Origin: a virus
Taxonomy: Duplodnaviria; Heunggongvirae; Uroviricota; Caudoviricetes
Length of the DNA stretch: 21,025 nt
IMG/VR virus record: IMGVR_UViG_2534681835_000014
Span: 1 to 21,025 of that record
Strand: one strand, 5' to 3'
Shown: positions 8,406 through 9,190 of the stretch, one piece after another
Layout: every line of letters starts with the position of its first letter
Position numbering within the stretch: the stretch's first letter is position 1
Made by a program: the position numbers and the translations under genes
Notes under the pieces: generated by a model
Told to the model about the DNA's origin: nothing
Database searches by the model: none
What the model saw: the letters and a program-made list of their open reading frames with translations, nothing else

Positions 8406-8771
8406 ATGCATAACCTGTCAATTTCTGACCTTAACTGCATTCAGTTTGACGAGAAATTTACCGGGCAGCTACTGGTCCATGTGGAGAACGGGCGCATAGT
8501 GCGTAATTACCACCTGCCGGATGGTGCAATTGCCGGAAGCGTTGAAGCATTGCTGGAACTGGCAGAACGTGCGCGACTGATTAAGCCGTTAACGAACCAT
8601 CACGATGATGATCTGCATTTTACCGGACGCATGGTGAGTCACTACGAAAACGGCGTCGAGGTATCCCGCGAACGGCTGCGTGATGATTGCTGTTTCGGCA
8701 CACTGCCGGAATTTATCGAGTTGCTGACCAGTTGCGGGTATCAGGTCATTCAGGGGGGTAAACATGCGTGA
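8406..8771 (+). CDS. hypothetical protein (121 aa) with an internal two-fold repeat
   Basis: FTGQLLVHVENGRIVRNYHL...GSVEALLELAERARL and FTGRMVSHYENGVEVSRERL...GTLPEFIELLTSCGY are two copies of one motif. Start is 4 nt after the previous stop. Confidence 0.55.
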   Translation: MHNLSISDLNCIQFDEKFTGQLLVHVENGRIVRNYHLPDGAIAGSVEALLELAERARLIKPLTNHHDDDLHFTGRMVSHYENGVEVSRERLRDDCCFGTLPEFIELLTSCGYQVIQGGKHA

Positions 8772-8997
8772 TGATCGTTTTAATTCCCTGAAACGGGAAT
8801 TTGATGGCGCACAGGAAGATGCAGCGGGCGCATTGTTGAGCGTTGCTGGCATGATGAAAGCTGCATATTTTCTTATCAATACCAGTGGCTACAAGTCAGA
8901 GGGTGAAATGATTCTTAGTATTGCGTCAGACTATGCGGAATATGTGGCAGAGACGCGTTACAGAAGAAAATCCACGGAGGATGTAAGCCATGCATAA
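8764..8997 (+). CDS. hypothetical protein (77 aa)
   Basis: Start overlaps the upstream stop (translational coupling). GGGGG upstream. Confidence 0.45.
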   Translation: MRDDRFNSLKREFDGAQEDAAGALLSVAGMMKAAYFLINTSGYKSEGEMILSIASDYAEYVAETRYRRKSTEDVSHA

Positions 8998-9190
8998 TCA
9001 TGAAGCGCATGTACCCGTAGTGCTTAATGTGCCAGATGATTTCACCGGACGCGTACTGGTTTACCTGGATAAAGGGAAAGTGAAATCACAATGCCGACTG
9101 AAAAGTAATGAGATTGTTGGTTCTCCTGAATTTTTTTCTGAACTTTGTATTCGTGCGGAAATAAAACCGGAACTGCTGACAGGAAAATAA
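8990..9190 (+). CDS. hypothetical protein (66 aa), single-copy paralogue of the repeat in 8406-8771
   Basis: MHN...FTGRVLVYLDKGKVKSQCRL...GSPEFFSELCIRAEI carries the same motif. RBS GGAGGA. Confidence 0.5.
   Translation: MHNHEAHVPVVLNVPDDFTGRVLVYLDKGKVKSQCRLKSNEIVGSPEFFSELCIRAEIKPELLTGK

Follow-up and report, generated by a model that had tools for sequence, protein, structure and literature searches.

A domain shared with the antirepressors FsoA and Rem occurs three times in two early proteins of an Escherichia coli prophage-embedded satellite

Results

The stretch of DNA analysed here, hereafter the window, comprises 21,025 nucleotides (nt) of a Caudoviricetes virus (IMG/VR record IMGVR_UViG_2534681835_000014, positions 1 to 21,025). 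It carries a phage satellite, a helper-embedded phage-inducible chromosomal island (PICI), and our subject is two small proteins encoded in the early operon of that satellite. The first, p121 (8406..8771, + strand; 121 amino acids (aa), N-terminus MHNLS), is a tandem two-domain FsoA/Rem-like protein. The second, p66 (8990..9190, + strand; 66 aa, N-terminus MHNHE), is a single-domain FsoA/Rem-like protein. Between them lies p77 (8764..8997, + strand), a small acidic 77-aa protein without the repeat motif, whose start overlaps the stop of p121. A first-pass annotation, made from the letters of the sequence, had remarked that both repeat proteins begin with MHN, as they do, and that one motif occurs twice in the 121-aa protein and once in the 66-aa protein. 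We call these copies A (p121 residues 1–62), B (p121 residues 63–121) and C (p66).

The repeat is real. Smith-Waterman local alignment was compared with 2000 shuffles (shuffled mean ∼21, sd ∼4) and gave scores of 61 for A against B (z 9.4), 78 for A against C (z 13.4) and 47 for B against C (z 6.3). In all three comparisons the observed score exceeded that of every shuffle, and p77 and the DUF4222 protein encoded downstream, used as negative controls, were not significant. Self-alignment thus bears out the internal duplication of p121. A hidden Markov model (HMM) of the family (39 homologues) likewise finds exactly three domains in the window, all on the + strand and none elsewhere: domain A at 8406-8576 (65.6 bits), domain B at 8616-8753 (64.2 bits) and domain C at 8990-9184 (about 90.6–90.7 bits). 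The conserved core spans ∼46–57 aa. Pairwise identity among the three window domains is only 25–35%; what is invariant in these three copies and in close homologues is FTG, the turn glycine of (E/D)xG and EL in the helix.

The predicted fold is duplicated too. The AlphaFold2 model of p121 has a hairpin (residues 21–37) and a helix (46–55), followed by a second hairpin (75–91) and a second helix (100–109), so that the predicted unit of each repeat is an 8+8-residue β-hairpin and then a 10-residue helix. This model was run with a 59-sequence alignment and reached a mean predicted local distance difference test (pLDDT) score of 71.9; a single-sequence run gave a pLDDT of 38.6 and was unusable. 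The linker (residues 59–68) is disordered in the model and the predicted template modelling score (pTM) is 0.32; the relative placement of the two p121 domains is therefore undefined. Foldseek comparison of the alignment-based model with the PDB and with BFVD yielded nothing below E 0.1, a profile run against PDB sequences returned only a chance match to an RNF4 hairpin, and PDB searches by sequence or fold found no solved structure of the family.

Both proteins are under purifying selection. The ratio of nonsynonymous to synonymous substitution rates (dN/dS) is 0.30–0.38 for p121, measured against two orthologues, and 0–0.05 for p66.

On sequence grounds p121 and p66 belong clearly to the FsoA/Rem family (PF27490 'Rem', PHROG 340), because of the HMM score of FsoA, the level of identity and the pairwise E-values of 1e-7 to 4e-6. 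In the Salmonella prophage Fels-1, tblastn matched STM0898.2n (positions 4968-5204 of locus L003). The published primers le154 and le162 (PMC3121763) correspond exactly to its first 22 and last 40 coding bases (L003 4968-4989 and 5162-5201), and STM0898.2n is therefore FsoA. Against the family HMM FsoA scores 94 bits, in the same range as p66. BLASTP aligns p121 with FsoA twice (30% identity over 40 aa, E 1e-6; 40% over 47 aa, E 4e-6) and p66 once (34% over 50 aa, E 1e-7). Rem, the 83-aa product of b1561 in the Qin cryptic prophage of E. coli K-12, is a weaker member (25 bits with the HMM; hhalign probability 93.7% and E 1.9e-7 against the family profile). GftA of Gifsy-2, which we identified as STM1020.1n by primer le116, is marginal at 6.5 bits.

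The family reaches well beyond the window. When 1.84 billion cluster representatives were searched exhaustively with a profile, 103 proteins were returned at E≤1e-3, ∼70 of them single-domain proteins of 56–100 aa with the consensus h-x-V-x-L-x-V-PDFTGRVLVYVENGkVxSxxxLxxDEhVATLxxFhELAxxAGYxV. Close homologues of p121 are P0022 and P0024 (79–85% identical), and P0163 and P0117 are relatives of p66; precomputed PF27490 matches (tool label 'Rem'), some of them flagged weak or faint, fall on these four and on P0088. Tandem two-domain relatives also exist (P0068, P0070 and P0071), with just 25–43% identity to p121, and the domain is fused to Bro-N in P0088 and to AntA in P0049. PHROG 340, a group of unknown function, matches both window proteins (2e-30 and 2.2e-20; two stretches of p121, one of p66). 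By contrast, p121, p77 and p66 have no match in NCBIfam, in PADLOC or in the Pfam set scanned, which was without the PF27490 model; a Pfam scan of 39 family members gave noise only, and no catalytic or other Pfam domain was found in the window repeat proteins. Family proteins are acidic, with a median isoelectric point (pI) of 5.4 (FsoA 4.5, p121 5.5, p66 6.8). A tblastn search of a phage collection with p121 found no match, and the same search with a more consensus-like member, P0093, reached Fels-1, Stx phages and Klebsiella phages.

The tail of the profile matches consists of MORN_2 (YwqK-like) repeat proteins, which match in many short stretches and through the FTG...ENG hairpin only. P0084, P0087, P0103, P0105 and others give such MORN_2-type matches through FTG-x6-ENG (E ∼1e-9 to 1e-4). 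The FTG-x6-ENG-x-h hairpin motif is common to both groups, and MORN proteins lack the helix. We dropped the idea of kinship: none of 39 family members matches MORN_2 at E≤1, and the resemblance is at the level of the motif only, probably a convergent hairpin grammar and not homology.

Several other arrangements of the domain deserve record. In L008-L019 (for example L011 6179-6400) and in L005 (5179-5397) an FsoA-like gene overlaps a downstream 72–73-aa gene by 4–29 bp, and in L015 and L017 two tandem FsoA-like genes precede that gene. In two Citrobacter loci (L009 ∼5955-6000 and L012 ∼3445-3490) a poly-C run (IPPP...) brings a frameshift into the N-terminal leader of an FsoA-like gene, with the domain intact in another frame.

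The genes for p121 and p66 sit in a compact early operon. It begins with a gene for an Icd-like protein (8211..8402, + strand; NCBIfam NF033153, 9.3e-18, and RefSeq annotation) and continues, by the list of open reading frames and the RefSeq annotation, with p121, p77, p66, a basic DUF4222 protein of pI 10.9 (9195..9485, + strand; Pfam PF13973, 1.4e-19) and the satellite primase, which has a P4-family primase C-terminal domain (9482..11287, + strand; TIGR01613, 2.9e-27, and RefSeq annotation). From p121 to the primase all genes lie on the + strand and their ends overlap or nearly abut. p77 matches PHROG 24341, and phrog_2512 spans the C-terminus of p121 together with p77. Transcribed divergently from the operon is a gene for a small YlcI/YnfO-family protein (7835..8014, - strand; NCBIfam NF041551, 2.3e-20), a candidate regulator of it.

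Three 13-bp palindromes lie in the intergenic segment 8015-8210 between the divergent YlcI/YnfO-like and Icd-like genes. The palindrome ACTGGAATCCAGT occurs twice in identical form (8035-8047 and 8103-8115), with the related AGTGGATTCCACT at 8080-8092. All overlap divergent sigma-70-like hexamers found on both strands by a promoter scan, and they are probably the operators of the satellite early operon; from the sequence, the repeats and the scan we place a putative operator/promoter region at 8034..8116. No LexA box lies in this region, and Rfam revealed no C4/isrK immunity RNA, either at the gathering threshold or at E≤1.

At the junction of p121 and p77 the window has a G6 tract (8753..8758, + strand; recognized by comparing the window with the O157:H7 junction) immediately ahead of the stop codon of p121 and the start of p77. 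Many E. coli strains instead encode p121–p77 in-frame fusions of 196 or 197 aa: the G5 allele (P0005 and relatives, QGVNMRDD) and the G8 allele (O157:H7 WP_000551748.1, 197 aa, QGGVNMRDD). The tract could thus be a site of slipped-strand variation between separate and fused p121 and p77. In a Pectobacterium satellite (L007) a p77-like reading frame lies directly upstream of the family gene.

The repeats also recombine with each other, as natural chimeras and the 8–9-nt microhomology of the FTG codons imply. In-frame deletions or chimeras join repeats in the E. coli proteins P0033, P0041, P0046, P0047, P0048, P0051, P0054 and P0065; in one type, for example, the N-terminus of A passes at FTG into the body of B or C.

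The window shares 99.93% identity with E. coli O111:H8 strain 8E, and the RefSeq annotation of that strain, with the same layout in O157:H7, gives the approximate extent of the satellite (5618..15690, + strand). This ∼10-kb element contains an integrase, an AlpA-like helix-turn-helix (HTH) protein (HTH_17), Bro-N, the early operon, the primase, a single-stranded DNA-binding protein (SSB) and a ClpP-protease/capsid fusion. It interrupts terL of a lambdoid prophage, with the N-terminal part of that gene at 4450-5460 and the C-terminal part at ∼15692-16820. The same satellite, with an identical p66, lies within terL of another Rac-like prophage in O157:H7 strain SS TX 313-1. We classify the element as a helper-embedded PICI, inserted at the lambda gene A cognate. 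The passages of Mageeney et al. (2023, PMC10111431) that describe such PICIs give the same insertion site, the lambda gene A cognate (terL), the same zones (Integration, Bro, Replication and Late) and an own capsid gene; small genes of this kind are grouped there as hypothetical families, and the passages matched by keyword draw no antirepressor link.

Other features of the element and its host prophage were seen along the way. The satellite integrase gene (5619-6856) is frameshifted at an A7 run (∼6121-6131) where strain 8E has A8 and an intact 412-aa gene; this is either a pseudogene or a sequencing error. A non-coding segment of ∼110–190 bp (3760-3946), upstream of the helper DUF1441 gene that precedes terL, is repeated twice in the satellite (12253-12439 and 14790-14901), where the copies flank the capsid gene region; the part at 12319-12439 is 93% identical over 121 nt. 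The copies may represent a packaging (cos-like) or late-regulatory site. The satellite fusion of ClpP-like prohead protease and major capsid protein (12896-14785) is paralogous to that of the helper (18329-20500; DNA blocks 73–81% identical), and the annotation of strain 8E gives a frameshift in the helper copy.

The family gene recurs in one slot, between the Bro zone and the primase, in PICIs whose primases are of three different types. Satellites with this slot come from Salmonella, Klebsiella, Pectobacterium and Buttiauxella, and from one metagenome contig (L032). In the window, in the Salmonella elements L022 and L023 and in L032, DUF4222 stands between the family gene and the primase. 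DUF4222 is itself fused to a DUF927 primase in one Salmonella PICI (L023 5211-6854), and DUF4222 N-terminal leaders are joined to FsoA-like domains in P0029, P0104 and P0148, which suggests that the slot of family gene, DUF4222 and primase recombines often. In Fels-1, Stx1/Stx2 phages, Klebsiella phages, and prophages of Hafnia and other Enterobacterales, the family gene is found in the early-left operon, between the repressor and the xis/int genes. One domain per element is usual, some elements have two and the window lineage has three.

We also asked what repressor the helper carries. The embedding prophage in strain 8E is Rac-like (int, xis, ralR, recT, recE, kilR, repressor, YdaS-like cro, YdaT), and its repressor is a 154-aa protein with HTH_3 only and no Peptidase_S24 domain. 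A C-terminal segment of this repressor (LLDLFDILPESEK...) resembles DicA (E 4.5e-6) and the Gifsy-2 repressor GtgR (E 2.6e-4). The O157:H7 helper has a 139-aa DicA homologue (E 7e-15), which likewise has HTH_3 as its sole domain, lacks Peptidase_S24 and shares only 26% identity with the O111 repressor. Both times, therefore, the helper has a repressor of the susceptible class, and the two differ in immunity type.

Discussion

The three repeats of p121 and p66 are relatives of proteins that inactivate prophage repressors, and we consider it reasonably probable, judging from this homology, that p121 and p66 act as antirepressors and lift the repression of helper or co-resident prophages. What members of the family do biochemically we take from the literature; the repeat, the family assignment, the selection, the acidity, the operon position and the repressor class come from our own analysis. 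The first-pass annotation had proposed the two proteins as candidates for helper interaction, naming repressor, terminase and capsid as possible partners. That guess is supported by homology, not by experiment: FsoA/Rem homology and the class of the helper repressor point to the repressor as target, and terminase and capsid are without support.

The literature on these relatives is informative. The Gifsy prophages have short, non-cleavable repressors, which come off DNA once GfoA, GfhA or GftA has bound them (Lemire, Figueroa-Bossi & Bossi 2011, PMC3121763); the complex of a GfoA/GftA-type antirepressor with its repressor is consistent with a 2:2 (A2B2) stoichiometry. FsoA of Fels-1 inactivates the Gifsy-2 repressor GtgR in trans, and the same paper names DicA and RacR in the non-cleavable class regulated by such antirepressors. 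Rem was reached by iterated searches from the Salmonella antirepressors GfoA and FsoA; its ectopic expression derepresses the DicA-repressed promoter dicBp 165-fold and also causes DicB/DicF-dependent filamentation (Ragunathan et al. 2023, PMC10448788).

Comparison with each of these systems shows what is shared and what is not. FsoA (PMC3121763) belongs to the same sequence family, with 30–40% identity to each of the three repeats; it is small, acidic, encoded in an early operon, not controlled by LexA and acts in trans on the repressor of another element. It differs as a single-domain 78-aa protein from a complete phage that has a cleavable CI-type repressor, whereas the satellite in the window encodes three domains, a pair of which share one chain, with a function predicted from homology. 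Rem (PMC10448788; PF27490) is homologous over the hairpin–helix core and antagonizes DicA, and the window helper repressor is of the DicA class. Rem is, however, more distant (25 bits), has an extra N-terminal hairpin-like segment and is encoded in a late-proximal part of Qin next to hokD-relBE rather than in an early operon. With GfoA, GfhA and GftA (of Gifsy-1, -3 and -2, respectively) the window proteins would share the proposed mechanism, removal of a non-cleavable repressor dimer from DNA. GftA resembles the family weakly, over the ENG turn and the helix, and the genes of these three lie beside dinI under LexA control, whereas a search around the window genes found no LexA box.

The instructive parallel from satellites is epsilon of P4. 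Like the window genes, epsilon is satellite-encoded and lies in an early operon, between the immunity region and the primase. The first-pass annotation had pointed to this position upstream of the primase, and the gene orders do agree: in P4 the order is cI, epsilon, orf151, orf106 and alpha. The role that we propose for the window proteins, inactivation of a helper prophage repressor, is likewise that of epsilon. Yet the window proteins have no similarity to epsilon, orf151, orf106 or other P4 proteins (best BLASTP to epsilon E 0.64 for p66 and 2.0 for p121), so the relation is one of analogy, not homology; the P4 system also differs in its helper, P2, and in the type of repressor. p121 and p66 are thus best read, as far as sequence comparison can tell, as functional analogues and not homologues of epsilon.

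How might they work? Each ∼50-aa domain, a β-hairpin and a helix, would be a repressor-binding unit, and p121 and p66 would be made from the satellite early operon. Their target would be a dimeric, short, non-cleavable HTH repressor of the DicA/RacR/GtgR class, supplied by the Rac-like helper, by a co-resident prophage or by a resident prophage of a newly entered cell. Binding would remove the repressor from its operators and so turn on the helper lytic genes that the satellite needs, as epsilon does for P4 by acting on the P2 repressor, but here through an unrelated protein. p121 could be a covalently linked pair of binding units, a single-chain match to the repressor dimer, and three diverged domains may widen the range of repressor immunity types recognized. 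We infer all four elements of this picture: the activity of p121 and p66, the helper as target, the single-chain pair and the broadened specificity.

A number of points weigh against this reading. Antirepressor specificity is narrow, and three other candidates were inactive on DicA (PMC10448788). Identity to FsoA is only 30–40% over 40–50 aa, and FsoA itself has no detectable role in inducing its own phage (PMC3121763). The helper immunity region was read from the near-identical genomes of strain 8E and O157:H7, not from the window itself. A search for LexA boxes found no site near the operon. The family is not specific to satellites; it is also found in the early-left operon of ordinary temperate phages. 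For p121, a pTM of 0.32 backs no defined two-domain arrangement. The many deletion and chimeric alleles mean that not every copy need be functional. The chief weakness is timing: in the model of PMC10111431 an embedded satellite is transcribed only after helper induction, and derepressing the same helper would then be redundant. Activity of p121 and p66 would be easiest to understand once the satellite has moved into a new lysogen, as in the P4-epsilon scenario, or against co-resident prophages, as in the crosstalk exerted by FsoA.

Four other explanations have to be set beside the antirepressor reading, and we rate them as less likely because of the characterized homologues, the lack of a ParE-like gene here and the selection signal. 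The two proteins might bind another partner, such as the YlcI/YnfO-like regulator, p77, DUF4222 or the primase, and serve as accessory factors in satellite replication or regulation. The order of family gene, DUF4222 and primase is indeed conserved across PICIs, many strains carry p77 as an in-frame fusion with p121, and the Pectobacterium satellite has a p77-like gene next to its family gene; but both family members with experimental data act on HTH repressors, and the family also occurs in phages that have no DUF4222, p77 or primase of this kind. We think this unlikely, if the least so of the four. A shade less probable is a generic part in early host takeover or anti-defence, in which these would be small acidic inhibitors of a host protein. 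Such a part would fit acidic, non-enzymatic proteins and the location of the family in temperate phages, in the early-left operon beside kil-, recombination- and Icd-type genes, yet there is no PADLOC match and no structural match to known inhibitors, and homology to characterized antirepressors explains the proteins more specifically.

The repeats could also be partly decayed paralogues, left over from duplication and recombination, with function lost in some or all (p121 especially). In-frame deletion and chimeric alleles between the repeats are many (P0033, P0041, P0046, P0048, P0051 and P0065), and the satellite integrase is frameshifted in the window. Decay is nevertheless hard to reconcile with a dN/dS that is far less than 1 in p121 and close to 0 in p66, or with the retention of tandem two-domain proteins in other lineages at 25–43% identity (P0068, P0070 and P0071), and we regard it as improbable, somewhat more so than a takeover function. 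By far the least probable is that family members are antitoxin-like partners of ParE-like toxins. The idea comes from one group of Enterobacterales prophages and the Klebsiella phage KPP5665-2, in which the family gene overlaps a downstream 72–73-aa gene; in L011 this gene matches PF24732 ParE_like (1.9e-20). No ParE-like gene lies beside the repeats in the window (p77 and DUF4222 were checked), in Fels-1 or in other satellites, and the demonstrated function of FsoA is a different one. We dropped the toxin–antitoxin lead because the adjacency is confined to a single prophage lineage and is absent here.

The antirepressor reading can be taken a step further, into more speculative territory. The satellite might carry a three-domain battery, in which p121 acts as a single-chain 'dimer', the poly-G tract (G5/G6/G8) toggles p121 between a free and a p77-fused form, and prophages of the DicA/RacR class with several immunity types are induced. 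We hold this to be doubtful. If true, the satellite would have a lambdoid counterpart of P4 epsilon and would drive prophage crosstalk in enterohaemorrhagic E. coli (EHEC).

Small trans-acting antirepressors of non-cleavable lambdoid repressors were already known, as was the helper-embedded PICI as a type of element. What is new is the placement of 'hypothetical' PICI genes in the FsoA/Rem family, the tandem protein p121 and the presence of three diverged copies in one satellite. Phage satellites outside the P4 family are mostly described as awaiting a signal from the helper, and to our knowledge P4 alone is known to switch its helper on, through epsilon. Our findings provide a concrete hypothesis for how enterobacterial PICIs could induce helpers, and a functional name for genes that are widespread, as a 'hypothetical' family, in PICIs and lambdoid phages. 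p121 offers a natural single-chain tandem form for studying how antirepressors engage repressor dimers. If the antirepressor reading is true, enterobacterial PICIs could themselves induce resident Rac-, Qin- or Gifsy-like prophages, and prophage stability, gene transfer and cell lysis would be affected in polylysogenic pathogens such as EHEC and Salmonella.

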